Assembly: GCA_964396265.1 (NCBI GenBank)
Contig: CAYNEM010000006.1
Location: forward strand, 60,789-124,788
Reading direction: 5' to 3'
DNA length: 64,000 nt
Source: an uncultured Methanomassiliicoccales archaeon
GTDB taxonomy: Archaea > Thermoplasmatota > Thermoplasmata > RBG-16-68-12 > EA-27
The notes beneath the pieces were generated by a model, which was given only the letters and a program-made list of their open reading frames with translations, did no database searches and was not told the origin of the DNA. Positions 4,061 through 36,388 of this stretch are shown here, one piece after another. The position numbers and the translations under genes are program-made. Position 1 is the first letter of the stretch. Each line of letters opens with the position of its first letter.

Positions 4061-4113
4061 TTCGCGCTCCTCCGGCGCATCCTTATATCGACCGCATACG
4101 GTTCCGAGCCGTC

Positions 4114-17787: not shown

Positions 17788-18474
17788 CTACTTTCCCCTC
17801 GACGGGGGCTTGAACAGGGCGGCGTCACGCTTCTGGTCTGGCCTCCGGATGCGCTTCTCCATCTCGACCTGCACCTGGGAGAACTTGTCCTGGTCCACGA
17901 TCGGGCGGTGCTTCCCGTTGCGGAGTCCCCCGTCCTGGCGGATGTACCCGCAGTACAGCGGGTTCCTCAGGATGTTCGCGATCGTCTGGCTTTGCCATCG
18001 CTTCCCGGTCTTTGTGCGGATCTCCGCGCGGTTGAGCTCCTCGCAGACTTTTGCGATGCCACGGCCCTCGAGATACATCTCAAAGATCAGGCCGACCGTG
18101 CGCGCCTCGTTCGGGTTCACCTTGAGCGCACCGTCGCGCGTCTCGTACCCGTAAGGCCGCGTGAACTCCTCGAACCCCAGGCCCGAGCCGCCCGAACCGT
18201 GTGACAAGATACCACGTATCATGGTCTTGTAGTCGAGCTTGCGCTCGACGCACAGCTTGCGCACCGCCTCGTCCTCGTCTTTCGCACTGAAGTGCGAGAG
18301 CATCTCCTTCGTCGACCCGAATCGCAGGAAGATCTCCCGGAAGACGACGGGGTCCTTCGGAGCTGCCTCGCGACACGCGCGGCACAGGACGGGGGCCCGC
18401 ATGTCCTCAATCGGGTGTTCCTGAAGGCCGCTCCGGCTCCAGCATCGCTCGCACCGGTCGTTCCCCACGGTCAC
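17788..18474 (-). CDS. serine-recombinase-family protein lacking the catalytic resolvase domain (zinc ribbon + recombinase domain)
   Basis: N-terminal CxxC..CxxC (CERCWS..CRACRE), then the 'recombinase' domain motif RPYGYETRDGALKVNPNEARTVGLIFEMYLEG..IAKVCEELN..GIRTKTGKRWQSQTIANILRNPLYCGYI. No YxRVSTxxQ catalytic motif. Confidence 0.75.
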   Translation of the reverse strand: MTVGNDRCERCWSRSGLQEHPIEDMRAPVLCRACREAAPKDPVVFREIFLRFGSTKEMLSHFSAKDEDEAVRKLCVERKLDYKTMIRGILSHGSGGSGLGFEEFTRPYGYETRDGALKVNPNEARTVGLIFEMYLEGRGIAKVCEELNRAEIRTKTGKRWQSQTIANILRNPLYCGYIRQDGGLRNGKHRPIVDQDKFSQVQVEMEKRIRRPDQKRDAALFKPPSRGK

Positions 18475-19286
18475 GCCTCCGCCGCCAAACGATCAGCCTC
18501 GATCGCGAGCACGACCTTTCTCCCTTGAACAGCGTCCCACAATCGGTGATCGACGATCGGCTGATGGGAATCGTCGCGGACGCTCTCGTCCCATCGGATC
18601 TTCCCGACGTAGACCGGATTGTGCAGCATGTAGCGGATCCCGGACTTGCTCCAGCGGCGGCCCCGCTGCGAAGGGATCCCATCGTCGTTGAGTTTGGCGG
18701 CGATCGCATGGAAGGCGCGCCCCTGGGCGTATTCCTCGAAAATGCCTCGGACGATGCGCGCCTCCGCCTCGTCCACGATGAGCGCACCGTCCACGTATCG
18801 ATACCCGAAGGGGCGGCGGAACCCGTTGAGCCCTTCCCCGGCCTTGTGCTTCTGCGCCATCCCCATGTACACGCGCTCCCCGATCTGCTCGGACTCGAGC
18901 TGCGCGATGCGCTGGATGATGTCCATGACGAAGCGCCCCATGGCGGTGGAGGTGTCGAGGGACTCCGTCGCGCTCACGAAGTCCTTGCCCCACTTCCCCA
19001 GGTCGTCCATCATCCCCATGAAGTTCCGCGAGTTGCGGTGGATCCGGTCCATCTTGATCACGAGCATCTTGTCCCAGGCATCTCGGTCCGCAAGCATCCG
19101 CTGGTACGCGGGACGGTTCACGTTCCTCCCGGTGTGGCCGTCGTCCACGTACTCCTGCGCGACGGTCCAGCCCTGGGCGCGGCAGAATGCATGGAGACGC
19201 TCGCTCTGCGCGTCGAGGGAGAAGCCCTCCTTCGCCTGATCCTCCGTGGATACGCGGGTGTAGAGTGCGACGCGTTGAGCTGCCAT
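18471..19286 (-). CDS. serine recombinase (resolvase/invertase catalytic domain + recombinase domain)
   Basis: Catalytic-Ser motif VALYTRVSTEDQ, then the recombinase-domain motif (RPFGYRYVDGALIVDEAEARIVRGIFEEY..GIPSQRGRRWSKSGIRYMLHNPVYVG). Its stop overlaps the downstream gene start by 4 nt. Confidence 0.88.
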   Translation of the reverse strand: MAAQRVALYTRVSTEDQAKEGFSLDAQSERLHAFCRAQGWTVAQEYVDDGHTGRNVNRPAYQRMLADRDAWDKMLVIKMDRIHRNSRNFMGMMDDLGKWGKDFVSATESLDTSTAMGRFVMDIIQRIAQLESEQIGERVYMGMAQKHKAGEGLNGFRRPFGYRYVDGALIVDEAEARIVRGIFEEYAQGRAFHAIAAKLNDDGIPSQRGRRWSKSGIRYMLHNPVYVGKIRWDESVRDDSHQPIVDHRLWDAVQGRKVVLAIEADRLAAEA

Positions 19287-19832: not shown

Positions 19833-20132
19833 ATGAAGGTCATCACCGTCCGGATCCCCGACGAGGATGCCGAGTCCCTGGAGTCCATCGAGCGCGCCGA
19901 GAAGGTGGACCGCGCGGCCGCGGTCCGGAAGCTCCTCTCCGAGGGCATCAACCGGTGGAAGGTGCAGAGGGCCCTGGATCTCCTCCGCCAGCATCGGGTG
20001 ACCCTGCGCACAGCGGCGCGCATGGCGGGCCTCTCCTACGGGGAGATGTTCGATCTGGCGGGCCGGGCGGACATCACGACAGGCTATTCCCTTCAGGACC
20101 TCCGACAGGACCTGGGGGAGCCGGACCGGTGA
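19833..20132 (+). CDS. UPF0175-family antitoxin-like protein
   Basis: 99 aa. C-terminal HTH (VTLRTAARMAGLSYGEMFDLAGRADI) typical of UPF0175. Strong TATA box TTTATATA at 19803-19810, 30 nt upstream of the ATG. Its stop overlaps the start of the PIN gene. Confidence 0.75.
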   Translation: MKVITVRIPDEDAESLESIERAEKVDRAAAVRKLLSEGINRWKVQRALDLLRQHRVTLRTAARMAGLSYGEMFDLAGRADITTGYSLQDLRQDLGEPDR

Positions 20133-20632
20133 TCGTCGATTCCTCCGCCCTCATCCCGCTCAGCCGCATCGGCCGCCTCGACCTGCTTCGCCGGTTGTAC
20201 CGCCCTGTGAGGACGACGCGGGACGTCTACCGCGAGTGCGTCGAGGAGGGGGCAGCCCGGCCCGGAGCCGACGCCCTTCGCGAGGCCTGCGAGCGGTGGC
20301 TTGAGGTCGTGGAGCCCCCCCGCGGCGCCGCGCGACTGGCCGCCGCCGAGGGGATCGAGCTAGCCGACGCCTCGCTCCTGCTCCTGTGCGAGGAGGCGAA
20401 GGACGCCCTGCTCACGAACGACGACCACCTGATGCGCGTGGCCCGGGCGCGCGGGATCCGGGGGCGCTGGCTCACGGGCGCCGTCCTCGCCGCCACACGG
20501 AGGGGACTGTTGACCCCCGCGGAGGCGAAGGAGCTCGTGACCCGGCTCGTCGGCGAGGGACTGTGGCTCTCCCCCCAGGTCTTCGTGGCAGTGCTGGACG
20601 CAATTGAGGCGATGACCGCTTCCCCGCGGTGA
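20129..20632 (+). CDS. PIN-domain toxin (DUF3368-like), partner of the UPF0175 gene
   Basis: GTG start overlapping the antitoxin stop as GTGA. VIVDSSALIPL.. and ..LLTNDDHLMRVA.. acidic residues fit a PIN nuclease of the type usually paired with UPF0175. Confidence 0.7.
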   Translation: MIVDSSALIPLSRIGRLDLLRRLYRPVRTTRDVYRECVEEGAARPGADALREACERWLEVVEPPRGAARLAAAEGIELADASLLLLCEEAKDALLTNDDHLMRVARARGIRGRWLTGAVLAATRRGLLTPAEAKELVTRLVGEGLWLSPQVFVAVLDAIEAMTASPR

Positions 20633-20772
20633 TGGCAGGTGAACGCAGAGAGCTATTGGACTGGCGACTGTTTGATTCCGCGACACTGTCCCGGCGGTTC
20701 AACGGGGACAGGTACGTCGAGCGCCTGAAGGGCCTGAGGCCGTCCCCGGACGAGGTTCGGCGAAAGGCTTAG
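20632..20772 (+). CDS. small conserved ORF B (~46 aa), paralog of ORF A
   Basis: MAGERRELLDWRLFDSATLSRRFNGDRYVERLKGLRPSPDEVRRKA. Its ATG overlaps the PIN gene stop as TGATG. Confidence 0.5.
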   Translation: MAGERRELLDWRLFDSATLSRRFNGDRYVERLKGLRPSPDEVRRKA

Positions 20773-20784
20773 GGCCCAGATGGG

Positions 20785-21138
20785 TCAGCCTTTGAGCCAC
20801 TTGGAGGCCCTCTTTGCGTCCCGCTCGAGTTCCTCGGGCGAATACCGGAAGTAGGGGATGCCCCGCTTGGCGGCCTCGTCGACCATTTCGTAGATACTCA
20901 CGCCAGCGTAGGCGGCAGCCCCGCCAAGGCTGAACTTGCCATGGAGGTACTTCTCCAGCGCGCGTTCCATTCGCAGCCGCCGGAGGCCCTCGTCCACCGC
21001 CCGCCGCGCCACGTCGGATCGGAGGAGGCGGAGGTCCGCGGCCAGCTCATCGATCTCCTCTAGGACATGCTCGTCCTTGCGGATCTGGAGGTTCTTCACA
21101 GGGCGATGTAATGACTTGTCATGTGATAAACTTTCCAT
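20785..21138 (-). CDS. UPF0175-like HTH protein (orphan antitoxin-like)
   Basis: 117 aa from ATG 21138. C-terminal ..KFSLGGAAAYAGVSIYEMVDEAAKRGIPY.. resembles the UPF0175 HTH. The longer 266-aa ORF upstream of it is low-complexity and unlikely to be translated. Confidence 0.5.
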   Translation of the reverse strand: MESLSHDKSLHRPVKNLQIRKDEHVLEEIDELAADLRLLRSDVARRAVDEGLRRLRMERALEKYLHGKFSLGGAAAYAGVSIYEMVDEAAKRGIPYFRYSPEELERDAKRASKWLKG

Positions 21139-21287
21139 CAGACGAGCCTCAGTGGAGGTTCCACCCTCCGCCGCGGGAAAGGAAGGAAGGGGAACAGGAC
21201 CCCCGGCGGAGGAACGTGCGCCAGGTCCAAGGCATGGGATTCTGCCATCGATGTATTTAAATGGCATTATGGCATAGTCTACCGCCG

Positions 21288-21554
21288 ATGGCGGAGCTCG
21301 TTTCGGTGGACCGCGCAGGGCGCGTCGTGCTGCCCAAGAAGATCCGAGACGCCTTGGGTATCGACGAGCGGACGAAGCTCCTCGTCGCGGTCGGTGAGCA
21401 CGGTCGACTGGTGCTCCAGAAAGTGGATGTGGAGGCCATCGCGGGTCGGCTGGAGAAGGAACTCGCCGGGAAGGACGTGGATGCGATTGTCCGGAAAGTC
21501 CGGAGGGAGATGAAGGCCCTTGCCCGCCGCCGGTATCCGGACCTTCTTGCTTGA
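21288..21554 (+). CDS. vapB: AbrB/SpoVT-type antitoxin (VapB-like)
   Basis: MAELVSVDRAGRVVLPKKIRDALGI.. swapped-hairpin AbrB motif. TATA-like TATTTAAAT at 21254-21262. Confidence 0.8.
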   Translation: MAELVSVDRAGRVVLPKKIRDALGIDERTKLLVAVGEHGRLVLQKVDVEAIAGRLEKELAGKDVDAIVRKVRREMKALARRRYPDLLA

Positions 21555-21951
21555 CACGAACGTCTTCGTGGCAGCGGTGAAGCACCCGGCGAGGGAGACC
21601 GCCACGCTCCGTCTCCTCCTCGAGGTCCTTCGGCGCGACGACGTCGCTCTCGTCGGGAACGACCTGTGGCTCGAAGAGATGCTCCGGTATGCCGAGGCCT
21701 TCCGTTCCGAGACCGCCTCCCAGCTCGTCGCCGCCTTAGTCGAGAAGACGCGGTTCGTTCGCGTCGACGCAAGCTTTCGGGCCGTCTGCCGACGGTTCAT
21801 GACCACTCCCGACCCCGCGGATGTCCTCCACGCCGCGACCTGCCTGCAGGAACGGGCGGTCCTCGTCACGAACGATCGGCACTTCGACCGGATCCGGAAG
21901 GAGGGCATCGTCGAGGTCTGGGACATCGCGAAAGCCATTCACTCCCTCTGA
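21520..21951 (+). CDS. vapC: PIN-domain toxin VapC
   Basis: FLLDTNVFVAA.. and ..VTNDRHF.. match conserved PIN acidic residues. Overlaps the 3' end of vapB, so its exact start is uncertain. Confidence 0.8.
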   Translation: MPAAGIRTFLLDTNVFVAAVKHPARETATLRLLLEVLRRDDVALVGNDLWLEEMLRYAEAFRSETASQLVAALVEKTRFVRVDASFRAVCRRFMTTPDPADVLHAATCLQERAVLVTNDRHFDRIRKEGIVEVWDIAKAIHSL

Positions 21952-22178
21952 GTCCCGCCGTTAGGTCGATGGACGAGTGCGAGCCGTAGCTGGACTAGCC
22001 GACGTTCTGCAAGGTGGAGTGGCAGCTCTTGACCCCGTCGACCTGACGCCCGTCCCGAAAGCTGGCATCGGATCCCCGATGGGGCGAGGCGACTTCTCCG
22101 CGACATGTCGCGCGCATCCCTTTCGACAGAGAAACCCAACCAGGCTCGGCGGCGACGAGCCGCCAGAAGGACCCAACC

Positions 22179-22637
22179 ATGCGAACGAACGAAGAAGGTG
22201 TGTCTCCGGTGATTGCGACCATCCTGATGGTGGCGATCACCGTGGTGTTGGCGGCGGTGCTGTACGTGATGGTGACGAACCTGATCGACGACCCCGGCGG
22301 ACGGCGACCCATCGTCACCCTGGACTCGATGGGATGCGATGCGGTTGAGTGCCGGGGGCGCGTGACGGCTGCCTCGTCGCCCTCGGTCGATCTGGGCCGG
22401 TTCCGCGTGACCGTCCTCGCCGACGGGAACGCCCTGATCCTCCCGACGGAACTTGTGGCCGGCGTGGACATCAGCGGAGGGGGCCTCACGCTCCGATACA
22501 CGGATCTTGGTGCCGAGGGGAAGGTGACGGGCGGCGACACGTTCCGCATCACGGGGATCTCGGCGGGGGTGGAGTACGAGGTCGTTCTCTTGTGGAACGA
22601 CGGAACGGGAATCCAGTCCGTGACGTTCAGCACCTAG
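22179..22637 (+). CDS. archaeal type IV pilin-like protein (class III signal peptide, DUF1628-type N-terminus)
   Basis: MRTNEEGVSPVIATILMVAITVVLAAVLYVMV is a typical prepilin-peptidase (PibD/FlaK) substrate N-terminus (..G/VSPVIA..). Confidence 0.8.
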   Translation: MRTNEEGVSPVIATILMVAITVVLAAVLYVMVTNLIDDPGGRRPIVTLDSMGCDAVECRGRVTAASSPSVDLGRFRVTVLADGNALILPTELVAGVDISGGGLTLRYTDLGAEGKVTGGDTFRITGISAGVEYEVVLLWNDGTGIQSVTFST

Positions 22638-22664
22638 GCGGGAGCCCCCCGCCTCCTCTTTTTT

Positions 22665-24953
22665 TCAATTCCCCCGATCCACCAACAGCCGCTGGACCTC
22701 GTCGCGGTCCCTGCGCGCCCCGAGCCCTTCGAAGATCGCGAGCGCTCGCCGCAGGTGCTCGAGGCCACGGGCATCCGTGCGGAGGCGCCCGAGGTTGCGG
22801 TGCACCTCCCCCATCTGCCAGAGGAAGCCGAGCTTCTCGGACAGCACGAGGCTCCGCTCGTAGAACCTGGCGGCGTTCGCCGCATCCCCCTTCCGCCGGT
22901 ACGCCTCCCCGATGTTGTTGTACAGGATCGCGACCGTGCGGTGGTCGCCCAGCTCCTCGCTCAGCCGGAGCGCGTCCGCGTAGTCCGCGAGCGCGCCGTC
23001 GACGTCGTCCCGCTGCCACCGCAGGATTCCGAGGTTGTTGAGCGCGCCCGCGACCCCGGCCGCATCGCCGACGGCCTCGTACGCCTCCCGGCTGCGGCGG
23101 TACAGGTCCGCGGCGGCGTCGAGGTTCCCCGCCTGCCATTCGAGGATGCCCAATGCGTTGAGGATGCGCGCCACGATCGACTGGTCGGCGTCGCCGACGA
23201 TCCCCAGTGCGCGCTCGAACGAGGCGCGCGCGACATCGAAGTCCCCTTGGCGGTATTCGATCACGCCGAGCTCGAGGACGCCGCGCGCCTCGCCTCGCCG
23301 GTCGCCAAGATCCTCCGCGAGGGAGCGCGCCTCGTCGAAGCTCTCCCGGGCGCCGGGCCATTCGCCGCGGACGGACTGGAGCTCGCCTCGCAGGAGGAGC
23401 AGGGGGACGCGGCCCGCGGGCTCCAGCGCCCGCAGGTCGAACGAGGCGAGGAGCTTCATCACGTCGTTCTGGAGGCCTTTGGCGGCGAGGGAGCGGCCGA
23501 TTCCGCCGAGGAGCGCGGCCGCGTCCTTCGTGCGTCCCGCCTGGATGAGGTGGTACAGCATCTCGACGCGCGCCTCGGGGTCCGCGAGGGCCTCGTAGTG
23601 CGACGCCGCGAGCGCGTGCAACCGGAGGCGCTGGGGCGTGGTCAGGCGTGAATAGAAGAACTCCCGGAGGAGGTCGTGCATGTCCGCAGTGCCGCCGCCA
23701 ATCCGGACGAGGGACCGCTCCGCAAGCGCCTCGAGGCGACCGACGTCGCTGACCTCTGGCGCGACGGCCTCGAGGGCGACGGGATGGCGGTGCACCGCCA
23801 GCGAGGCGACGATATCCTGTTCTCGTGCATCAAGCTTCGAGGCGACCTCCTCGCGCAGGTACGCGCGCACGTCCGTCATTCCCTGACCGCCCGAGGCCGC
23901 GACGAGCTCGAGGAACAGGGGATGGCCCTTCGTCGCCACCACGAGTTCCGCGCGCCGGTCTGCGGGTACGCCCCGATCTTGCAGGAGCCGGAGGGCGCTC
24001 GCCTCATCGAGGCCGCCAAACTCGAGCTCGACCACGAGGCCCTCGAGGCTGACCTCCCGCCGCGAGTAGAACACGGGGATCCGACGCCCGGCGATCACGA
24101 GCTTCGCGCGCGTCCCCCCGAGCACGCGAACGAGCTGGGTCAGCAGGCCGGCCAACCCCTCCGGAGCCTTGTGGACATCGTCCAGGAAGGCAATCATGGG
24201 GAGGTCGCGGACCTCCGCGGCGATCCGGGTCAGCATCTCCTCGACGGGGACCGTCCGCTGCACGTCGATTGTGCGCCCGACCTCCCGCAGTTTGGCGGCG
24301 ATCCCCGCGAGGACCTGCTCCGTGGTCGTCCACTCCGTCACGCGGAACCATACGGTGACGGCGGAATCGGCGCCCTCCGCGAGCCGCGCGAGGAAGGCGG
24401 TCTTGCCGACGCCTGGCAGTCCCCGGACCGTTAAGCACACGGCCGGTGACTTGAGGAACTCGCGCGCTGCCGCCAATTCCCGGGACCGCCCGTAGAAGCG
24501 CCTGGGGGTCGCGGTCGTCGGGGGCGCACGCGCGCGGGAGGCGTCAAGATCGAGTACACCGTCCGTCGCCGCCAATGCGAGGTCGAGGAGCGTCGTTCCC
24601 ATGGGGGCGAGCGGCAGAGATTGCGAGAGTTCGGCGATCTGTTCCGTGCCGCCGGAACGCACGCGCACACGCGTGGCGGCGATCCGCGTCCGCAAGGCCT
24701 CCGCCGCCTGGGCCCCCGCGGGGGTCAGCACGTACACCTTGCGCCGCCGGCCGCCCGCCTCCACGTGGGCCATCCGTTTCGTGACGTGCCCGCGCGTCTC
24801 CATCTCGCCGAGGACGGCGGAGACGTGGCTGCGGCGCACGCTGACCGCGAGGGCGATCCCCTGCTGCGTCATCTCGAACGGGACCTCGAAGCGCTCCCCG
24901 CGGCGCACGTACGCGAGGAGGTGGAGCAGGATGCGCTCCTCCGCGGTCAGCAT
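22665..24953 (-). CDS. STAND-class NTPase with N-terminal winged-helix, central NB-ARC-like AAA ATPase and C-terminal TPR repeats
   Basis: N-terminal MarR/ArsR-like wHTH (LLHLLAYVRRGERFEVP..). Walker A GLPGVGKTAFLARL and Walker B MIAFLDDVH. C-terminal TPR units (ALNNLGILRWQRDDVDGALADYADALRLSEELGD..). Confidence 0.85.
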   Translation of the reverse strand: MLTAEERILLHLLAYVRRGERFEVPFEMTQQGIALAVSVRRSHVSAVLGEMETRGHVTKRMAHVEAGGRRRKVYVLTPAGAQAAEALRTRIAATRVRVRSGGTEQIAELSQSLPLAPMGTTLLDLALAATDGVLDLDASRARAPPTTATPRRFYGRSRELAAAREFLKSPAVCLTVRGLPGVGKTAFLARLAEGADSAVTVWFRVTEWTTTEQVLAGIAAKLREVGRTIDVQRTVPVEEMLTRIAAEVRDLPMIAFLDDVHKAPEGLAGLLTQLVRVLGGTRAKLVIAGRRIPVFYSRREVSLEGLVVELEFGGLDEASALRLLQDRGVPADRRAELVVATKGHPLFLELVAASGGQGMTDVRAYLREEVASKLDAREQDIVASLAVHRHPVALEAVAPEVSDVGRLEALAERSLVRIGGGTADMHDLLREFFYSRLTTPQRLRLHALAASHYEALADPEARVEMLYHLIQAGRTKDAAALLGGIGRSLAAKGLQNDVMKLLASFDLRALEPAGRVPLLLLRGELQSVRGEWPGARESFDEARSLAEDLGDRRGEARGVLELGVIEYRQGDFDVARASFERALGIVGDADQSIVARILNALGILEWQAGNLDAAADLYRRSREAYEAVGDAAGVAGALNNLGILRWQRDDVDGALADYADALRLSEELGDHRTVAILYNNIGEAYRRKGDAANAARFYERSLVLSEKLGFLWQMGEVHRNLGRLRTDARGLEHLRRALAIFEGLGARRDRDEVQRLLVDRGN

Positions 24954-25010
24954 GTCGGACGCCGAGCGGGGTCCGGGGGTATGAAGATGAGGGCGACGTG
25001 TCGGTCCGCT

Positions 25011-25514
25011 TCACTTGGGGGCCTCGGAGGACTCAGGCCCCGGGCCAACTTCAGCTTCCTTGGTCTTTGGCAGATACTTCACCGCACGACCCCATCTGTA
25101 GATGACCCACAGCTCCGTCTTCTCGGGCGAGACAATGAACATCATGGGGTTGGCGATCGAGCCGATCAGGTTACCAAGCGGTCGCTGCCGTCCGCTGGCG
25201 AGACGAGCCGAAGCGGCAAACAGCCGCTCGTCCTGGGGCTTCTTGAGTTCGTTCGCCTGAAGGGACAGGGAGAGATGCTCAATGGTGTCCCATCGCATGC
25301 GTTCCGTCCGGGGGACCCATGTCAAGACCACCGCGTCCCTTGAGAACCCGACGCGGATGGGCTGGGACACGAGGAGCACCCCCGCGGATAATCCCACCAA
25401 GAGAAGTATGGCTCCGAGGAGGCCGATTCGATGGGGTGTCGAGGTGAAGATGATGCCCACCACGATGAACATGGGGAGAACGACAAGCCACAGTTCAGCC
25501 ATGAAGCGTGCCAT
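25011..25514 (-). CDS. small membrane protein with PH-like (YdbS/bPH_2-like) domain
   Basis: 167 aa from ATG 25514, two N-terminal TM helices then a soluble domain. The ORF-track extension to 26636 is antisense junk. Confidence 0.6.
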   Translation of the reverse strand: MARFMAELWLVVLPMFIVVGIIFTSTPHRIGLLGAILLLVGLSAGVLLVSQPIRVGFSRDAVVLTWVPRTERMRWDTIEHLSLSLQANELKKPQDERLFAASARLASGRQRPLGNLIGSIANPMMFIVSPEKTELWVIYRWGRAVKYLPKTKEAEVGPGPESSEAPK

Positions 25515-25640
25515 CCAACGGACCGCCCCACGGTTGGTTTCCCAGTGGATGTCGCTCTCCAACCTTACACCTTGGATTGCGACCCCATGGCATGAGGCGG
25601 CTTGAATTCGTCCGAAAAGGGTTAGAACCCGTGCGGCCGT

Positions 25641-26567
25641 GTGGCGCCGATGGTCTTCGCGAACCGACTGCGCGACTTCCCTCTGGTCCTTGAGGTCGTG
25701 CCCCCCCACGGCCGCGCGAGCGACAAGGCCGTCCGGAGCCTCGTGAAGAAGGTCCACGAGGCCGTCGGCACGATCCCCCGACTCGACGCCGTGAACATCC
25801 CGGAGATCCTGGACGAGAACCACGCGGGGATGCCGTTCTATCGGAACATGGACCCGCGGCGGTTCGCGGGCCTGCTGAACCTCGAGGGTCCCCTCGAGCC
25901 GATCGTGAACAAGGTCGTCGTCCACATGGAGGGCGTGGGGGCGTTCGACACGTGGGTCAAGGAGTCCCTCGACGCGTACGGCCTGCGGAACTTCGTCCTC
26001 GTCGGCGGGGGGAGCAGCCGCGTCACCTACCCGGGGCCGACGGTGGCGGGGGCGAACGAGAGGCTCGCGCACCTCACCGAGGCGTACAAGGGAGTCGTGG
26101 GGGGAAACATCGCGATCCCGGAGCGGAGGGACGAGGTGTCCCGCCTCGTCGGGAAGACGCGCACGGGCAGCCGGTTCTTCACGACGCAGGTGCTGTTCGA
26201 GGCGGAGCCGATCGCGACGACGCTGCGGCACTACGGCGAGGCGTGCCACTACGAGGGCGTGCACCCCGCGACGGTGCTCCTCAGCTTCGCGCCCGTGTCG
26301 GACTACCAGGACGTAGAGTTCCTCGCATGGCTCGGGGCGACCGTGACGCCGGAGACGGAGGAGCGCCTGCTCCAGCGCGGGGTTCGCCCGGGCGTCGCGT
26401 CGCTCCAGGTGGCCCTCAAGATCCTCACGAAGATCCGCGACGCGGTCGAGGGCTCGCCACACCCGGTGCCGCTCGGCGCGAACGTCGAGCAGATCGCGAC
26501 GCACAACTTCGAGCTGGCGGTGAAAATGGCGCAGGAGTTCCTCGCGTGGAAGGACGCGAAGGTCTAA
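25641..26567 (+). CDS. methylenetetrahydrofolate reductase (MetF)-like protein
   Basis: 308 aa, TIM-barrel-like. ..LVLEVVPPHGRASDKAVRSLVKKVHEAVGTIPRLDAVNIPE.. resembles the MTHFR family start. Moderate confidence without a search. Confidence 0.5.
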   Translation: MAPMVFANRLRDFPLVLEVVPPHGRASDKAVRSLVKKVHEAVGTIPRLDAVNIPEILDENHAGMPFYRNMDPRRFAGLLNLEGPLEPIVNKVVVHMEGVGAFDTWVKESLDAYGLRNFVLVGGGSSRVTYPGPTVAGANERLAHLTEAYKGVVGGNIAIPERRDEVSRLVGKTRTGSRFFTTQVLFEAEPIATTLRHYGEACHYEGVHPATVLLSFAPVSDYQDVEFLAWLGATVTPETEERLLQRGVRPGVASLQVALKILTKIRDAVEGSPHPVPLGANVEQIATHNFELAVKMAQEFLAWKDAKV

Positions 26568-27002: not shown

Positions 27003-29774
27003 TCACGATCGCTTCGCATCCGGAGATGTCGACACGCTCCGGCTGCGGCCCCTGAGGACCGCGACGGTCACACCCGCCGCCAGGATCCCTCCGTCGACCA
27101 CGGCGCCGACGCCAAGCAAGGGCGGGATTGACAGCAACCCGGTGAAGTGCGACAGGATCCCGGTCGCAGCTTCCGCGAGGACGAAGGGGAGACTCGTGGT
27201 GGCAAATGCGACGATAGCGGAACTGCGCCCTCCCTCGTGCCCTTGCGCGCTCCGCCTCGACGACGATGCGCCCAAGGCGATGAGCACGGCGGCGAACACC
27301 GCGGCGACGAGGGGCTTCCAGTTGACATTCGCGGGCGCGAGCGGAATGACGACCTCTACCGCTACGCTCGCCGAGCTCACATTCCCGTCGTCGTCCGCCA
27401 CGACTAACCAGACGATGTAGAACCCGGGCCTGGAGAAAGCGTGCGCCTGCGCGGAGCTCGGCCCGCTCACCGGCGGCGTCCCGTCGCCGAAGTCGAACGC
27501 GTAGTCCACGATCGTCCCGTCGAGATCGCTCGAGCCGCTTCCATCGAAGGTGATCGAGACCTCGACTTCCACGGTGGTCACGCTCGCCGTAATCACCGCC
27601 GTCGGAGCCAGGCCCCACACCGTGACCGTGACCTGATCCGAATCGGTCAGTCCCTCCGTGTCCGCGGCGGTGAACTGCAGGACGTAGGTTCCCAGGACGG
27701 GCGCAAAGAAGTCCGCCGCGTTCGTCGTCCCGCCATTCAGGGTCACGCTCGCGGGCCCGGAGACTTGCGACCATGCGACGACGAGGGCGTCTCCGTCCGG
27801 GTCGGAAACGATGCCGTACACAAAGACCTGGGTGCCCTTGCGGGCCATGAAGCTCGACCCAGCATCGACCGATGGCCCCGCGTTGGAGACGGACACCGTC
27901 ACTTGGACGGAATCCGTGCCCTCGAAGTCCCCGTCATCAACGGTCAGCTCGAACACGTACGTCCCCGAGACCGATGGCGTGAAGTCGGCCGTCGCTGTGC
28001 CTGCGCCGTTCATGACCACGGGAGGCCCGGATATCTGAGACCAAACGTAGGCGAGTCCGTCTCCGTCCGGATCGGAGGAGGCCAAGCCGTCAAGGGGCAC
28101 CGCGGAGTACTTCGGAGCCGTGATGGGCGCTGTGGCAACCGCGACCGGCCGCGCGTTGAGGACCGTCACCACGATCGTGTCTGAGTCGGCGCCGCCAAAG
28201 CCGTCGTCCGCCCGAAGGAGGAACATGCACGTGCCGCTCCGTATCGCGGTGAAGGCCGGCATCGCGTCATTTGGGTCGGACAATGTGATTCCAGTAGGTG
28301 CCGTCCACGCGTACGTCAGAGCGTCGCCGTCAGGGTCAACCGACCCGGTGGCGTCGAGTGCGAGGAGGACGTTCTTCGCGGCGGTGGTCTGATCCGGACC
28401 CGCGTTCGCAACCGGGTTCCGGTTGAGCGGGGTTACTGCGACGGAGGTCTCCCCGATTCCTCCGAAGCCGTCGTCCACGGTGAGGTTGAACACATACGTT
28501 CCAAGCTCGGTCGGGATGAAGGATGCCGTGGCGGTATTGGCGCCCGTCAGGGTCACCTCGGGACCGCTGACCTTGCTCCAGGAAAACGTCAACGAGTCTC
28601 CGTCGGGGTCACCGCTGCCCGTGCCGTCCAATACGACGATCTGTCCGCGGAAGATCGGGGGGGCCGTGGCGGTGGCGCTCGCCGTCGGCGGGCGGTTCTC
28701 AATCTGGATCGTGAGCCCGTCCGTATCATTCTGGTCGGCGCTGTCCCAAACGGTCAGGCTTACGATAAAGGCGCCACGAACGGCGTAGGCGTGCGTCGCG
28801 AGGGGGTTCGTGTTCATCTCTCCGTCGCCGAAATCCCAGAGGTGTGCAGTGAGGCCGACGTCGTCGGTCGATCCCGTGGCGTCGAAGAGGATCTGGGTTC
28901 CGATGTAGCCGCTCATCGGGGTGGCCGCGGCCAAGGCCGTGGGGGGGTTGTCGATCAGGTTCAGCGAACCGCCAAAGACCACCCCGGCCGGATTGCAGTT
29001 GTACGGTCCGTCGCCGCAGCCGAAGAAGCCATTCGCGGCACGGATGGTGATGACGTTTGTGCCCGGGAGAAGGTACGGCAGAATGTCGAAGGTGGCCAGC
29101 GAATCGTGCGCTGGACCGGCAAGGGACTCATCCGTCACGCTGCCAGTTGTTCCCACGAACATGCCGTTGACGCGCACCTCAGCGAAGTCATCCACGGCTA
29201 CCGATGTTGTTCCTCCCGTAAACACCCCGGGGAAGTCGAACACTTTCGAGAAGAAGAATTCCGCGGGGAACGCTGGGGACGTTGTACCATCGATCGCAGG
29301 AGCCCAAATCCACGTCGCGCCTGGAATACTCGACAAGTCGGCCGTCCATCCGTCATAAGGGTAATCATACAACGTGGCCCCCGGAGGGCAATTCGACGGC
29401 GCGAAGTCGTTTAGGCAAATATTCTGCGCGAGGCCCAGGAAGGTCCCCGCGGAATCGGAGACTGACCAGGTGGTGTCCGAGACGAACGGAATCGTTCCCG
29501 TTGGGGCGTCCTCTTCGTCGTCGTTCAGAACGCCGGTGTTCGCGGCCACGAACAGGTCCGGGCCTGTATCGGGGATTGGCAGCGCGCTCAGGGGGTGGGG
29601 TTGGAGGAGACCTGCGGAGGGCGCCTCGTCCAGACGAGGGCTTGCGATCGACGAGCCCCCATCGTCCGCCGAACTCGCGAGGAGTTGGGACGACGGGGGG
29701 AGGACCAACACCGCCAACACCGCCAAGGCGACGACCGCTGCGGCTCGCAACCCCTCGCCCTCCCTCCGGTACAT
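27003..29774 (-). CDS. cell-surface protein with multiple PKD domains and C-terminal TM anchor
   Basis: Signal peptide. At least five PKD-like units (e.g. GTQILFDATGSTDDVGLTAHLWDFGDGE..; FDGSGSSDLDGTIVDYAFDFGDGT..). C-terminal hydrophobic helix plus basic tail. Confidence 0.8.
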   Translation of the reverse strand: MYRREGEGLRAAAVVALAVLAVLVLPPSSQLLASSADDGGSSIASPRLDEAPSAGLLQPHPLSALPIPDTGPDLFVAANTGVLNDDEEDAPTGTIPFVSDTTWSVSDSAGTFLGLAQNICLNDFAPSNCPPGATLYDYPYDGWTADLSSIPGATWIWAPAIDGTTSPAFPAEFFFSKVFDFPGVFTGGTTSVAVDDFAEVRVNGMFVGTTGSVTDESLAGPAHDSLATFDILPYLLPGTNVITIRAANGFFGCGDGPYNCNPAGVVFGGSLNLIDNPPTALAAATPMSGYIGTQILFDATGSTDDVGLTAHLWDFGDGEMNTNPLATHAYAVRGAFIVSLTVWDSADQNDTDGLTIQIENRPPTASATATAPPIFRGQIVVLDGTGSGDPDGDSLTFSWSKVSGPEVTLTGANTATASFIPTELGTYVFNLTVDDGFGGIGETSVAVTPLNRNPVANAGPDQTTAAKNVLLALDATGSVDPDGDALTYAWTAPTGITLSDPNDAMPAFTAIRSGTCMFLLRADDGFGGADSDTIVVTVLNARPVAVATAPITAPKYSAVPLDGLASSDPDGDGLAYVWSQISGPPVVMNGAGTATADFTPSVSGTYVFELTVDDGDFEGTDSVQVTVSVSNAGPSVDAGSSFMARKGTQVFVYGIVSDPDGDALVVAWSQVSGPASVTLNGGTTNAADFFAPVLGTYVLQFTAADTEGLTDSDQVTVTVWGLAPTAVITASVTTVEVEVSITFDGSGSSDLDGTIVDYAFDFGDGTPPVSGPSSAQAHAFSRPGFYIVWLVVADDDGNVSSASVAVEVVIPLAPANVNWKPLVAAVFAAVLIALGASSSRRSAQGHEGGRSSAIVAFATTSLPFVLAEAATGILSHFTGLLSIPPLLGVGAVVDGGILAAGVTVAVLRGRSRSVSTSPDAKRS

Positions 29775-32341: not shown

Positions 32342-35300
32342 CTATCGCGGCGCCCCCCAATCGTCGGTTTCGTCGACGGGCTCGGGGTCGGTGGCACTGC
32401 CTCGATCGGCCTGGGATCCCGCATCGCCCGGGACGTCGCCGAGATTTGCGGTGTACCTTTTCGCGCGCCCTTTCCTCTCCACGCGTAGGACCCCCAGCGC
32501 TGCCATCCGACTGATGTGGTAGCTGACGGCGGGCTGGCTCACGCCCACATCCTTCGCGAGTTCCTTTTGTGTGAGTCCCGATGTCCCGCGGATCCTCTGG
32601 AGCAGGAGGAGTTCGATGTCCGTGAGCCTGGGCTGCATCTCCGCCACGCGATGCCCGTACGGAGCGTACCGCCGGAACCGGCCGTCTCTCCAAGACTTGA
32701 TTTCTCCTTCCTTTTCAAGGACCCAGAGGTGGTAGGTCAGCGTGCCCATCGCCATCTTGAGGTCCGCGCGGATTGCGGCGAAGTTCGCGGCAGGGTTTGC
32801 CGCCAGGTAGCCCACGACCATGCCGCGCTTCTCGTGGTCCAGGATGTCGCCGTGGGTGAGCCGCGCCCACAACACAGCGAACGGTACCCAGAACGACCGC
32901 CGCAGGTACTCGTACAGCCATGAGATGGAGACCGCGATACTTACGGTCACCGCGAGGACGATCCAGATGAGCGGGAAGGGAGCGGCGGGCGTCGCCACGA
33001 TGGTCACGAGGAACGCGCGTTCCACCGCCTGGTTGTTCAGTCGATCCCAAGCGCGGTGGACCACCACATGATCGCCCGCCGGGAGCGAAAAGCTGACTTC
33101 ATACGGAATCCAGGACCCGTTGTCCACTTGGTACTCGATGCGGTCGACTCCGCTCCCTGCATCGGAGGCGGACAAGGTGAACCGAGTGGCCGTCGTGAAG
33201 GGGCCTTGGTCGGGCGTGTATGTCGTGGCCGGCGGCGTATTGTCAAGCACGACGCGGAGCACGCCCGCCACGTTATTGCCTAGGAGGTCCGTCGCTCGGT
33301 ACTCCAGCGTCCTCGGTCCGTCAGCGCCGACGAGAGTCAACGGCGCCGCGTACGGAGTCCACGCGCCGTCCCCGTCGAGGCGGTATTCCGTCAGGGCGAC
33401 ACCAACAGGAGTTGCCCCGCCATCCGCCGCCGCGAGCGCAAGCGCAGTGGAGGAGTTCACGAACGTGTCCGCAGCGACGAACTTGGGCTCTCCAATCGCG
33501 AGGGTCGTCGACGGCGGTGTGTCGTCCACGCGGAGCCGTGCGGAACGCGCCACTTCCCGCGTCCCCGTGTTGTCCTCGCTGTACCACCCGAGAAGGTGCT
33601 CGCCCTCGCTAAGCAGCGAGAACGGGCCCACGTAGTCAATCCACAGCGGGGCGTTGTCGATCCTGTAGCGCGTGAACCTGATGCCTGTGCCGTTCCTGTC
33701 GAGGACCGAGAGGGAAAGGGGAGTGACCGATGTAACGTACGTCTCCGGAGCTGTGTGGTTGGGTTGCCCGATGAGGAGGGCGGTGATAGGTCCGAAGATC
33801 ACTTGGATCGTCGCGCACGCTTCGTTGTTCGACTCGTTGAGCTCGTCGATCCCGTCTCCCGAGTCCACGACCACGCAGATGTCATGTGCACCGGACGGCC
33901 ACGCTGTCCATGTCACCGAGGCGCGGCCGGTCCCGCCGAAAGGGCCTATCTGCGGGATTAGCTGGTCCGTCCCAATCGGGAACCCGCCGGTTGGGGGACC
34001 GTCGAAGAAGCGGACGCGGACCGCGGATGCGACGCCAACGCCTTCATTGTGCACGGTCGCTTCGATGATCAGGTCCTCTCCGGGGTTCACCGCGAGCGGT
34101 GGGACGAAGGCGATGTCCGCGGGGACGACGCTTAGGTCGGAAGGCCACACGAACTTCGCTACGAAGGCATCCTTCCAGTTGTTGACGTCTGCACTTGAGT
34201 CATCCAAATCCGTATCCCATGCGCCGAAGGTGGACGGGAAGTTCGACGACTGCGTTTCTCCGGTCACGTACGCATTGCCCGCGGAATCGAGGGCGATCGA
34301 CCTCGCGAAGTCGAGGTCACGCCCGCCCAGGTACGTGGAGTAGTCGAGAACGACGCCCCCTGGACCCAGCCTCGTCACGAAGCCGTCGCGTGCCCCCCGG
34401 TTCTGCGTGGAGTTTGCGTCGGGGGTGGGGGGGAAATCGGCTGAGTTCGTGTCCCCCGCCACGTAGGCGTTCCCCGCGCGGTCCACCGCAATCCCGTATC
34501 CGTAGTCACGCTTAGCGCCCCCGAGAAATGTGGCGTAGAGGAGGGCGGTCCCCGTGGGATCGACCTTCGCCACGAAGGCGTCGGTTACGCCGTTATGGGT
34601 GGTGTCGTTGGCCCCATTCGTAGTGGTGAAATTCGTGACGTCTTCCACCGTGGACCCCGTCACGTAGGCGTTTCCGGCGCCGTCCACGGCAATCCCCGAT
34701 CCTTCGTCGAGCCCACTGCCTCCGAGGAACGTGGCGTACACGAGGGAGGTGCCCGCGGGATTCACCATCGCCACGAACGCGTCCCCCGGTCCGCCACCGT
34801 AGGTCTCTTGGACTACACCGGCAGTGACAGGGAAGAATGATGCCGAATCCACCTGTCCCGTTACGTATGCGTTGCCGCCCGAGTCGACCGCGATCGAGAG
34901 GCCCGAGTCGTTCCCAGACCCGCCTAGATACGTTGCATAGTCCAGTGAGCCGCCAGTGACGTTGAGCTTCGCCACGAAGGCGTCCGACGCTCCGCCAAGG
35001 GTCGTGTCGTTCGCGCCAATTCTCCAGGGGAAGTCATCGGAAGATGTGTCTCCTGTAAGGAACACGCTCCCTCCGGGGGCCACCGCAACGGAGTTCCCTC
35101 CGTCTGCCCCTCTGCCCCCGAGATAGCTTGCATAGAGGAGGGCTGCGCCCGTTGCGTTCAGACTCGCCACGAACGCGTCCGACGGTCCGCCAAGGGCCGT
35201 GTCGTTCGCGTTAGGGGTGAAAGGGAAGTTGTCGGAAGATGTGTTTCCCGTGACATAGACAGCACCTAGGGTGTCAACGGCGATCGACCGCCCGCGGTCT

Positions 35301-36388
35301 TCGCCGCCGCCGCCGAGATAGGTCATGTAGATGAGGGAACTGAGCGTGCGATCCAGCTTCGCCACGAAGGCGTCGACTGTTCCATTGAGCGTTTCGTCGA
35401 AAGACCCGAGTGTCGCTGTGAAGTTCGCGGACTCGGTCTCCCCCGTCACGTAGGCATTGCCGTCCGCGTCCACAGCGATGGCGGTTCCCCCGTCGGCGCC
35501 GGGCCCGCCAAGAAACGTAGCGGTGAGGAGAGGGTCGATCACCAAGGGTTTAGAGCCTTCCACCCCTTGGCATCGCAGGCCGTAGGAACGAGGACCGCGA
35601 GGGACGAACGCGCACGGAACGCGATCTGCTCCTTGATATGCGATCGGCGCGGAGTCGGTGAGACTCCCCACGGATGTTTGGATCCACGCGTTGCCGGCTC
35701 CATCAATCTCAATCCCGTCCGCACCATCGTACACCAACGTGATGTCCTCGGGGCTTACGCCCGCAAGGAGGTGGAACTCGTATTTCACGCCAGTAGGAGT
35801 TGCGCGGTAAATGAGATCCACGCCTCGATATAGATCCTCATACACGACCTCGCCGTAACTCCGGACGCCCGTCCGCCAGAGAGCGGGATCGCTTCCCAGG
35901 AAGAAGTGGCTCAGATGGGGGCTGGGTTCCCTCGCCCGCGGGAGTACATCGTTCGCACCTTCGAACAGGAGCTGCAGCATCACTCCCCTCGAGTGGGCAG
36001 ATCCGTGCAGCTGTGCCGTGGGCATCATCGGATGACGTTCGTCTCCCATCGACGATTGCGAAGTCTCGACGACTTTGAGGAGAACGGAGCTCTCCGCAAA
36101 TCCCGCTTGGAGATCCCGCGATACGATGTAGAACCGCACATCTCGGTTGTGGATCTGACCTCGGTTTTCTATGAAAGATGAAGACACCGGTTCATCGAGA
36201 ACCCGGTTCGCAACCATCTCCATAGGAACGGACTGCGCTCTGTCCTCAGCGTTCATGTGATCACTGTCTGGCGAGGGGGCGATTCCGGCGAGGCCCGAAG
36301 AGACCGCGAGAAGAAGCGGCCAGAGCCACCACGATTTGTTCCGCGCGTCGAAACCTCGCGTTGGCATCTCTGACCTAAGCGAAATCAA
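32342..36388 (-). CDS. membrane-anchored beta-propeller (SBBP-type repeats) / CARDB protein with cytoplasmic tandem winged-helix DNA-binding domains
   Basis: Signal peptide. About 8 repeats of DAFVAKLNxTG..LxYATYLGGxGxDxGxxIAVDxxGNAYVTGxTxSxxFP (SBBP-like). CARDB segment. One TM helix (PFPLIWIVLAVTVSIAVSISWLY). C-terminal MarR/TrmB-like wHTH twice (..GMVVGYLAANPAANFAAIRADL..; ..LLLQRIRGTSGLTQKELAKDVGVSQPAVSYHISRM..). Confidence 0.8.
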   Translation of the reverse strand: MISLRSEMPTRGFDARNKSWWLWPLLLAVSSGLAGIAPSPDSDHMNAEDRAQSVPMEMVANRVLDEPVSSSFIENRGQIHNRDVRFYIVSRDLQAGFAESSVLLKVVETSQSSMGDERHPMMPTAQLHGSAHSRGVMLQLLFEGANDVLPRAREPSPHLSHFFLGSDPALWRTGVRSYGEVVYEDLYRGVDLIYRATPTGVKYEFHLLAGVSPEDITLVYDGADGIEIDGAGNAWIQTSVGSLTDSAPIAYQGADRVPCAFVPRGPRSYGLRCQGVEGSKPLVIDPLLTATFLGGPGADGGTAIAVDADGNAYVTGETESANFTATLGSFDETLNGTVDAFVAKLDRTLSSLIYMTYLGGGGEDRGRSIAVDTLGAVYVTGNTSSDNFPFTPNANDTALGGPSDAFVASLNATGAALLYASYLGGRGADGGNSVAVAPGGSVFLTGDTSSDDFPWRIGANDTTLGGASDAFVAKLNVTGGSLDYATYLGGSGNDSGLSIAVDSGGNAYVTGQVDSASFFPVTAGVVQETYGGGPGDAFVAMVNPAGTSLVYATFLGGSGLDEGSGIAVDGAGNAYVTGSTVEDVTNFTTTNGANDTTHNGVTDAFVAKVDPTGTALLYATFLGGAKRDYGYGIAVDRAGNAYVAGDTNSADFPPTPDANSTQNRGARDGFVTRLGPGGVVLDYSTYLGGRDLDFARSIALDSAGNAYVTGETQSSNFPSTFGAWDTDLDDSSADVNNWKDAFVAKFVWPSDLSVVPADIAFVPPLAVNPGEDLIIEATVHNEGVGVASAVRVRFFDGPPTGGFPIGTDQLIPQIGPFGGTGRASVTWTAWPSGAHDICVVVDSGDGIDELNESNNEACATIQVIFGPITALLIGQPNHTAPETYVTSVTPLSLSVLDRNGTGIRFTRYRIDNAPLWIDYVGPFSLLSEGEHLLGWYSEDNTGTREVARSARLRVDDTPPSTTLAIGEPKFVAADTFVNSSTALALAAADGGATPVGVALTEYRLDGDGAWTPYAAPLTLVGADGPRTLEYRATDLLGNNVAGVLRVVLDNTPPATTYTPDQGPFTTATRFTLSASDAGSGVDRIEYQVDNGSWIPYEVSFSLPAGDHVVVHRAWDRLNNQAVERAFLVTIVATPAAPFPLIWIVLAVTVSIAVSISWLYEYLRRSFWVPFAVLWARLTHGDILDHEKRGMVVGYLAANPAANFAAIRADLKMAMGTLTYHLWVLEKEGEIKSWRDGRFRRYAPYGHRVAEMQPRLTDIELLLLQRIRGTSGLTQKELAKDVGVSQPAVSYHISRMAALGVLRVERKGRAKRYTANLGDVPGDAGSQADRGSATDPEPVDETDDWGAPR

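Follow-up and report, generated by a model that had tools for sequence, protein, structure and literature searches.

We analysed a 64,000-nucleotide stretch (the window; positions 60,789 to 124,788 of contig CAYNEM010000006.1, assembly GCA_964396265.1) from an uncultured Methanomassiliicoccales archaeon. Its focus is a gene for a 762-residue STAND NTPase, which carries a winged helix-turn-helix (wHTH) at its N-terminus and tetratricopeptide repeats (TPRs) at its C-terminus and converges with a gene for a stand-alone type IV pilin. The protein is a predicted DNA-binding, ATP-dependently multimerizing transcription factor of the PH0952 type, and we lean, with modest confidence, towards the view that it is an autoregulated, ligand- and ATP-gated activator of the pilin gene, acting through a predicted operator, the palindrome CGACAnGTCG. 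The direct observations behind this view are the domain architecture with its NTPase motifs, the homology to PH0952, the adjacency of the pilin gene and the common, equally placed palindrome in the two promoters; from these we infer that the STAND protein binds the palindrome and that the sign of regulation is activation.

Results

A STAND protein of the PH0952 clade

The 762-codon open reading frame (ORF) is a real gene. The window is archaeal, with a G+C content of about 67%, and the G+C values of the ORF at the three codon positions (0.77/0.47/0.90) are typical of a gene. A 100%-identical copy (P0001) is present in the database, together with about 18 orthologous clusters of 58-91% identity and 759-772 residues; these near-identical and orthologous proteins are labelled 'Thermoplasmata archaeon'. 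In an alignment of 17 orthologues, the N-terminal wHTH is the best-conserved stretch of the protein, with hardly any variation in its recognition helix (VRRSHVSA) or its wing (GGRRRKVYVLTP). Profile matches to this domain are weak: in Pfam, HTH_Crp_2 lies just above its cut-off (27.3 bits against 27) and PadR and DUF7343 stay below theirs, and NCBIfam gives weak MreA and MarR matches. In the AlphaFold2 (AF2) model, the order of three helices (residues 4-13, 30-37 and 41-53) and a beta-hairpin (57-64 and 70-76), followed by a helix at 78-92, is clear.

The NOD module (NBD-HD-WHD) contains a Walker A motif (G178-T185), a Walker B motif (D258-D259), R290, G343-H344-P345 and M425-H426-D427, and the motifs GLPGVGKT, LDDVHK, AGRR, GHPL and MHD are invariant or nearly so in the same 17 orthologues. 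Judged by these motifs, the NTPase core is intact and the protein is a member of the STAND superfamily. The best NTPase model for the core is AAA_16 (residues 152-279; 32.2 bits against a cut-off of 32.6), with AAA_22 and nSTAND6 also among the best. The preliminary description of this DNA had spoken of an NB-ARC core; in the Pfam sense that label does not apply, since PF00931 gave no match to the protein at E<=0.01 and the core belongs to the PH0952 clade, although the label is close in spirit. Precomputed PF00931 matches are present in some paralogues of 30% identity. The C-terminal repeat region is robust in Pfam (TPR_12, 9e-28, residues ~518-740; TPR_MalT, 1e-8) and amounts to about seven TPRs. 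The AF2 model, built from 36 sequences, has a mean predicted local distance difference test score (pLDDT) of 87, exceeding 90 in the arm and TPR helices (439-761), and consists of the wHTH, a short linker domain, NBD-HD-WHD and about 14 paired arm and TPR helices. Motifs, TPR_12 and model together confirm the earlier description of a wHTH-STAND NTPase-TPR architecture.

By sequence, the best solved relative is PH0952 of Pyrococcus horikoshii (6mfv; phmmer E 1.5e-11, residues 152-434). A family profile searched against the PDB extends this match over NOD, arm and TPR (E 1.5e-62; profile positions 158-769 on chain residues 7-595), and PH0952 is also the top Foldseek match (E 4.9e-20, 638 aligned columns), with MalT (8bob), Apaf-1 and then, weakly, Avs3 below it. 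APAF1 has been described as the sister of the PH0952 clade, with MalT branching basally to the two (PMC6468293). Homology over NOD, arm and TPR places the STAND protein in the PH0952 clade, which is the outcome of the profile-based classification that the preliminary description had proposed, and its suggestion of a signal-integrating regulator resembling MalT and AfsR is upheld, as the protein has the architecture of PH0952, itself predicted to be an archaeal STAND transcription factor.

A conserved type IV pilin neighbour

The conserved companion of the STAND gene is a gene for a stand-alone type IV pilin. Its product has a class III signal peptide of textbook type, with MRTNEEG preceding the predicted cleavage site and VSPVIATILMVAITVVLAAVLY following it, and matches Pilin_N (3e-11, Pfam) and TIGR02537 (6e-14, NCBIfam) above their cut-offs. 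By signal peptide and profiles, it is an archaeal type IV pilin whose processing and assembly are predicted, and the two matches corroborate the convergent pilin gene reported earlier. The neighbouring pilins are orthologous, with an invariant N-terminus in eight orthologues, and the tail-to-tail arrangement recurs in nine of the ten orthologous lineages, at distances of 19-169 bp and down to 35% STAND identity. Ordered by identity of the STAND protein to that of the window, the lineages with a pilin neighbour are the window itself (equal to L001/L002; 100%), L010 (85%), L006/L007 (81%), L005 and L093 (70% each), L008 (69%), L009 (63%), L003/L004 (58%) and L091 (35%, in DNA of 53% G+C). The order STAND-pilin-GNAT is common to L091 and L003. 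Outside the STAND-pilin pair, the genes on both sides differ from lineage to lineage.

A separate observation concerns L092, where two paralogous proteins with a transmembrane (TM) anchor (216 and 265 residues; 3116-4619, minus strand) are encoded convergently with the STAND gene. They have no class III signal, and a C-terminal GD[ST][FI]R[IL] motif is common to them and the pilin, which suggests a pilin-related globular domain on a different anchor.

A palindrome at the same place in two promoters

An alignment of seven lineages covered the 140 nt preceding the STAND gene, and its pattern also holds for L093 and L092. The palindrome CGACAnGTCG is found there in eight lineages, with the variant CAACACGTCG in L092, and its flanks are unalignable. 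Three blocks are conserved: CCGACAnGTCG, a TATA-like box found 7-9 nt further on (CTTCATAC, TTTTTACC, TATTTACC, TCTTTATC, TTAATAG and CTATAAG across lineages) and, some 25-30 nt beyond, the ATG; apart from these, only scattered columns are conserved. Boxes of the cTTAAg type precede the start codons of other window genes by about 31 nt, so leaderless mRNAs seem to be the rule, and the STAND mRNA, with its predicted transcription start, would likewise be leaderless or nearly so.

In the 230 nt upstream of the pilin gene, the alignment contains three conserved blocks, namely the palindrome with a T-rich element, an inverted repeat (GCGGC-N4-5-GCCGC) and AGAAGGA before the ATG. The relatives carry the palindrome as CCACATGTCG, CGACATGTCT, CGACGTGTCA or CGACATGTGA, and a degenerate copy (22091-22100 in the window; for example, CGACACTTCG in L005) lies 10 bp, or one helical turn, upstream of it. 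Each of the eight lineages has CGACAnGTCG in both promoters, with a TATA-like box 7-9 nt downstream of it, in intergenic DNA that has mostly diverged. A position weight matrix derived from the STAND-promoter sites only was also run on the DNA preceding the pilin gene, and in 8/8 lineages its best match falls at -74 to -87 relative to the ATG; depending on the lineage, 1.4-10.6% of random 150-nt windows score equally, in a null set that contains the true sites.

The inverted repeat takes the form GCGGC-GNNA-GCCGC in relatives, with an invariant stem and a variable loop. As the stem is invariant, there is no covariation that would speak for or against a structured RNA; the repeat could be a hairpin in the 5' untranslated region or a second operator. 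A scan of 21900-25700 against Rfam gave no credible match, the one entry being IRES_Bip at chance level (13 bits against a gathering threshold of 40). A hairpin with an element resembling a Shine-Dalgarno (SD) sequence is unusual where most genes look leaderless. At the other end of the pilin gene, the last T of the terminator's T7 run is part of the STAND stop codon. A terminator hairpin with a T-run was seen in 7/8 loci, with differing stems; L091 is unclear and L003 has a hairpin without a T-run. No terminator is visible for the STAND gene on its own strand. The features of the locus are collected in Table 1.

Table 1. Position of the features in and around the STAND-pilin locus (window numbering unless a relative is named)
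Feature	Coordinates	Strand	Basis or remark
Pilin-promoter palindrome CGACATGTCG, predicted operator	22101..22110	+	Alignment; position weight matrix from STAND-promoter sites
Weak T-rich TATA-like element CCTTTCGAC, 8 nt after the pilin palindrome (7-8 nt across lineages)	22119..22127	+	Spacing as in the STAND promoter; putative assignment
Inverted repeat GGCGGC-GACGA-GCCGCC, then AGAAGGA (SD-like)	22148..22171	+	Directly 5' of the pilin ATG
Stand-alone archaeal type IV pilin gene, 152 residues	22179..22637	+	Pilin_N, TIGR02537; orthologues in L003, L005, L006, L008, L009, L010, L093, L091
Pilin terminator, G+C hairpin and T7 run	22638..22665	+	Takes up the entire gap before the STAND stop codon
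STAND transcription-factor gene (predicted function), 762 residues	22665..24953	-	Stop codon 22665-22667; ORF, third-position G+C, orthologues, alignment, AF2, PH0952 match
Arm and TPR sensor, residues 439-762; ~14 paired helices from residue 512	22668..23639	-	TPR_12, TPR_MalT, AF2
NOD (NBD-HD-WHD), residues 152-435	23649..24500	-	PH0952 match, AAA_16, invariant columns
N-terminal wHTH, residues 1-92	24678..24953	-	Weak profile matches, AF2 secondary structure, conservation
TATA-like box tCTTCATAC of the STAND promoter, ~25-30 nt before the ATG	24979..24987	-	Aligned with orthologous boxes
STAND-promoter palindrome CGACACGTCG, predicted operator (autoregulation)	24994..25003	-	Same place in eight lineages
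Small two-TM protein gene, 167 residues, lineage-specific neighbour	25011..25514	-	Two predicted N-terminal TM helices
Split serine recombinase, two consecutive ORFs	17788-19286	-	Beside the pilin gene
Split recombinase in relatives	L005 9068-10577; L006 9074-10597; L008 4175-5685; L010 9106-10607; L093 3365-4881		
Three toxin-antitoxin modules	19833-21951		Ribbon-helix-helix (RHH)/UPF0175 and DUF3368 PIN-like; lone UPF0175; MazE/AbrB and PIN

Discussion

In the mechanism that we propose, the resting protein would have an ADP-bound core held shut by the arm and TPRs, by analogy with MalT, AfsR and the double-autoinhibition model of PH0952 (PMC6468293). Binding of a ligand at the TPRs and arm would release this clamp and open the core, ADP would be exchanged for ATP, and the protein would multimerize. 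The clustered winged helices could then occupy CGACAnGTCG directly upstream of the transcription factor B recognition element (BRE) and TATA box. One predicted target is the promoter of the STAND gene itself, whose leaderless mRNA would then be under positive autoregulation, and the other is the promoter of the convergent pilin gene, whose terminator would shield the STAND gene from convergent read-through. Sites directly upstream of BRE/TATA are typical of archaeal activators. We favour activation and positive autoregulation because the palindrome has this position and the TATA box of the pilin gene is poor; this poor box, together with the second, degenerate site one helical turn upstream, is also the reason for proposing that the pilin promoter depends on an activator. 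The conserved pilin neighbour and the palindrome in both promoters lend real support to the earlier idea that the protein regulates surface structures, in which binding of the DNA is the predicted component. As for the input, it is a speculative and rather improbable extension that the ATP-gated, oligomerizing switch couples an intracellular signal read by the TPRs to pilin expression, the signal being a peptide derived from pilin or pilus assembly or a viral protein.

Several results weigh against a regulatory link between the STAND protein and the pilin gene. Across the 64 kb of the window, three sites match the pattern exactly, one in each of the two promoters and one in a coding region; they amount to 4 strand matches where 2.9 are expected, which is not above chance. 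A 10-mer common to two 100-nt regions with at most one mismatch is likewise expected by chance, according to our estimate. Because the count is at chance level, the case for the palindrome rests on its position and its conservation across lineages, and the lineages that share it are related to one another. In L091, we found no palindrome common to the two promoters, only TATA-like AT-rich words and a 9-mer that is within chance. L092 (59% identity) has no Pilin_N protein at the locus, with membrane proteins downstream of the STAND gene, and lacks the second copy of the motif, and L061, a STAND relative of 34% identity, has no pilin neighbour. None of 80 loci from other genomes (L011-L090; mostly paralogues of 22-34% identity from Methanomassiliicoccales, Poseidoniales and other Thermoplasmatota, with a few bacterial ones) has a pilin neighbour by full-length and N-terminal pilin profiles and a regular expression for the class III signal peptide, so the pilin link is specific to the orthologous clade. 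No pilus-assembly genes are found within the window, the convergent orientation departs from the classic divergent layout of regulator and target, and the palindrome could be bound by another factor.

In one alternative, which we regard as unlikely but serious, the STAND transcription factor has its regulon elsewhere, the adjacency of the pilin gene is synteny inherited within one Thermoplasmata family, and the palindrome is bound by another factor or is an element of promoter architecture in both genes. The evidence from protein architecture is equally compatible with it, as are the relatedness of the lineages, the lack of enrichment of the motif by count, the absence of a pilin from L092 and L061 and the paralogues without a pilin link. 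It accounts less well for the persistence of the pair down to 35% identity and across a shift of 14 points in G+C (L091) while the outer flanks turn over, or for the palindrome being among the few conserved intergenic blocks, in both promoters and at an equal offset from a TATA-like box. A second alternative comes from the preliminary description, which had raised the option of an Avs-type defence NTPase. Archaeal viruses use type IV pili, and an antiviral sensor of this kind might detect a viral protein with its TPRs and use the wHTH as effector or regulator, for example to shut off a pilus that serves as virus receptor. Foldseek does list Avs3 (8dgc, E 4e-9), but with a TMq of 0.21; toxin-antitoxin genes lie near the STAND gene in the window lineage, but are missing from the other lineages. 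Defence and non-defence STAND clades, including transcription regulators, are moreover interspersed (PMC13581612). PADLOC-DB returned for the protein only the generic TPR model PDLC01169 (residues 592-706), and the protein has no enzymatic effector domain of the nuclease, protease, Sir2 or TIR type, its N-terminus being the wHTH. The neighbours at orthologous loci are a DnaG-type primase, a Mg-chelatase-like AAA protein, a HEAT-repeat protein, a protein resembling methylenetetrahydrofolate reductase (MTHFR), a GNAT protein, an M50 peptidase, alanyl-tRNA synthetase and the pilin, and farther away in the window are genes for DNA ligase, adenylosuccinate synthetase, TtuA, PdxS, a NOG1-type GTPase, Tyw1 and large surface proteins. 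In several lineages, the STAND gene is a single-copy syntenic orthologue amid housekeeping genes. With a generic TPR match, no effector, no context of a defence island and vertical, syntenic inheritance, the STAND gene is not a defence gene, and an Avs-like antiviral role is very improbable.

The preliminary description had also joined the STAND gene in an operon with a PH-domain membrane protein encoded upstream, as a possible partner. Such a pair of membrane signal and regulator, transcribed as a single operon, is the explanation to which we give the least credence. In its favour, the small gene is on the same strand with a gap of 57 bp, its product has two predicted TM helices, and there are faint traces of a bPH_10 domain, at E 0.26 in a longer reading of the ORF and at E 0.004 in a remote relative (P0129; 17 bits against a cut-off of 27, below threshold). 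However, that 57-bp gap contains the conserved promoter, so the STAND gene has its own, which speaks against an operon, and a PH domain is not confirmed: at E<=0.01, neither Pfam nor NCBIfam nor PADLOC matched the small protein, a profile search against the PDB found no match, and the single-sequence AF2 model (pLDDT 51) is unusable. Conservation across relatives, which we checked, largely refutes a partnership. In none of the seven other lineages with a readable upstream gene, L003, L005, L006, L008, L009 and L010 among them, does a homologue of the small protein precede the STAND gene. At that place stand a HEAT-repeat protein in L005 and L006 (in L006 with an opposite-strand gene between), a primase and a Mg-chelatase-like AAA protein in L003 and L009, a different 285-residue gene in L008, and an opposite-strand gene of 265 residues in L010, despite 85% STAND identity. 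A word-index search recovered only the 100% copy, and a full HMMER search of 1.8 billion representatives added four relatives (154-173 residues, 23-29% identity), so the ORF is probably a real gene of a tiny family; in the one relative with a readable, short context, no STAND gene follows. The third-position G+C of the small gene (0.76) is also below that of its neighbours.

Comparison with known systems helps to place the STAND protein as a candidate pilin regulator. In domain order (N-terminal wHTH, NOD, arm and TPR sensor), it is identical to PH0952; the two are archaeal proteins and predicted transcription factors (PMC6468293). However, the two share only about 16% identity, PH0952 is from Thermococcales and the present protein from Thermoplasmatota, and the comparison covers NOD, arm and TPR, the N-terminal domain being missing from the PH0952 crystal. 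A crystal structure exists for the PH0952 clade, and in the literature we found no target, operator or ligand for it, whereas here the pilin gene is a candidate target and the palindrome a candidate operator. MalT of Escherichia coli is a STAND activator whose NOD fold matches the model (8bob_C, E 1e-9, Foldseek) and whose TPR family is matched in Pfam (TPR_MalT). In MalT, ligand and ATP lead to multimerization and cooperative binding at repeated sites upstream of the core promoter, and we propose a similar behaviour for the archaeal protein. MalT differs in its C-terminal LuxR-type HTH, its bacterial host and its sigma-70 promoters; its ligand (maltotriose) and inhibitors (MalK, MalY and Aes) are known. 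The actinomycete AfsR/SARP-STAND activators likewise have a DNA-binding domain at the N-terminus, a STAND ATPase and TPRs at the C-terminus; with the family profile, AfsR is matched in the arm and TPR region (E 5e-23). This similarity lies outside the NTPase core, and the DNA-binding module of the bacterial AfsR, an OmpR-type wHTH with BTAD, is absent from our protein. Avs proteins such as Avs3 (PDB 8DGC) resemble it in the STAND core, the TPR-like sensor and the logic of ligand-triggered oligomerization, but they have an enzymatic effector and reside in defence islands, in contrast to the DNA-binding domain and housekeeping synteny seen here. Among archaeal regulators, EarA has its site upstream of BRE/TATA. 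Control of a pilin or archaellin promoter, the role that we propose, is described for EarA, ArnR/ArnR1 and Lrs14/AbfR1 (PMC4858521; PMC13286277); these are unrelated small or membrane-bound HTH proteins without an NTPase switch or a TPR sensor.

In the literature that we found, experimental work on STAND transcription factors is confined to bacteria (MalT, GutR and AfsR), and the regulation of archaeal type IV pilin genes is poorly understood (PMC4858521). The locus could therefore yield the first regulon for the PH0952 clade and the first regulator for Thermoplasmata pili. On the speculative and rather improbable reading in which the TPRs couple an intracellular signal to pilin expression, no earlier archaeal STAND transcription factor would have had both a target gene and an operator assigned to it, and the locus would form a regulatory bridge between the control of surface filaments and STAND-type pattern recognition. 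The locus also illustrates that toxin-antitoxin and recombinase genes beside a STAND/TPR gene do not by themselves mark it as a defence gene.

Neighbouring genes of the window

Beside the pilin gene lies a large serine recombinase, encoded by two consecutive ORFs. ORF 1 (271 residues) comprises the Resolvase domain and part of the Recombinase domain and ends in AAEA before the stop codon, and ORF 2 (about 230 residues) holds the Zn-ribbon and the rest, starting with ..GDRCERCW. The split occurs at the same point in six lineages, with varying relative frames. A frameshift was rejected as its cause, because the relative frames differ between lineages; the constant split point and the varying frames instead indicate a stably maintained split gene. 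In all six lineages, the recombinase has the pilin gene on one side and an RFC-like AAA gene on the other. We also considered whether the adjacent recombinase inverts the pilin promoter and rejected this candidate, as a comparison of five loci revealed no conserved inverted repeats in flanking positions. The toxin-antitoxin modules, which separate the pilin gene from the recombinase, are confined to the window lineage; at orthologous loci, the pilin gene is directly followed by the recombinase. The earlier notion of a mobile island thus fits only the toxin-antitoxin genes, which are lineage-specific, while the recombinase is a conserved syntenic neighbour in six lineages.

Elsewhere in the window, a 305-residue protein (25650-26567, plus strand) shows sub-threshold similarity to MTHFR (MTHFR_2, E 5.5e-4). 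Proteins of 65-71% identity to it are encoded near the STAND gene in L005 and L006, and L010 has a 305-residue gene at the matching place, likened by length only. Two adjacent, divergent genes (58322-59278, minus strand, and 59324-60142, plus strand) encode small GTPases of the Ras/Roc family (Ras, 1e-25 and 2.5e-32). A 1348-residue ORF (32345-36388, minus strand) combines domains of extracellular type (DUF7948, six SBBP beta-propeller repeats and CARDB) with HTH domains at the C-terminus (HVO_0163-type, HTH_20/HTH_24/MarR); it may represent a transcription regulator that spans the membrane, or ORF calling may have joined two genes. The region is rich in cell-surface genes: PKD proteins are encoded at 27003-29774 and 36487-39156, a surface protein of 2331 residues (43322-50314, minus strand) contains a WD40 propeller, an S8 subtilase domain, Big_13 and glucodextranase-B, and a giant ORF of 1793 residues (50537-55918, plus strand) is listed with the surface-protein genes.

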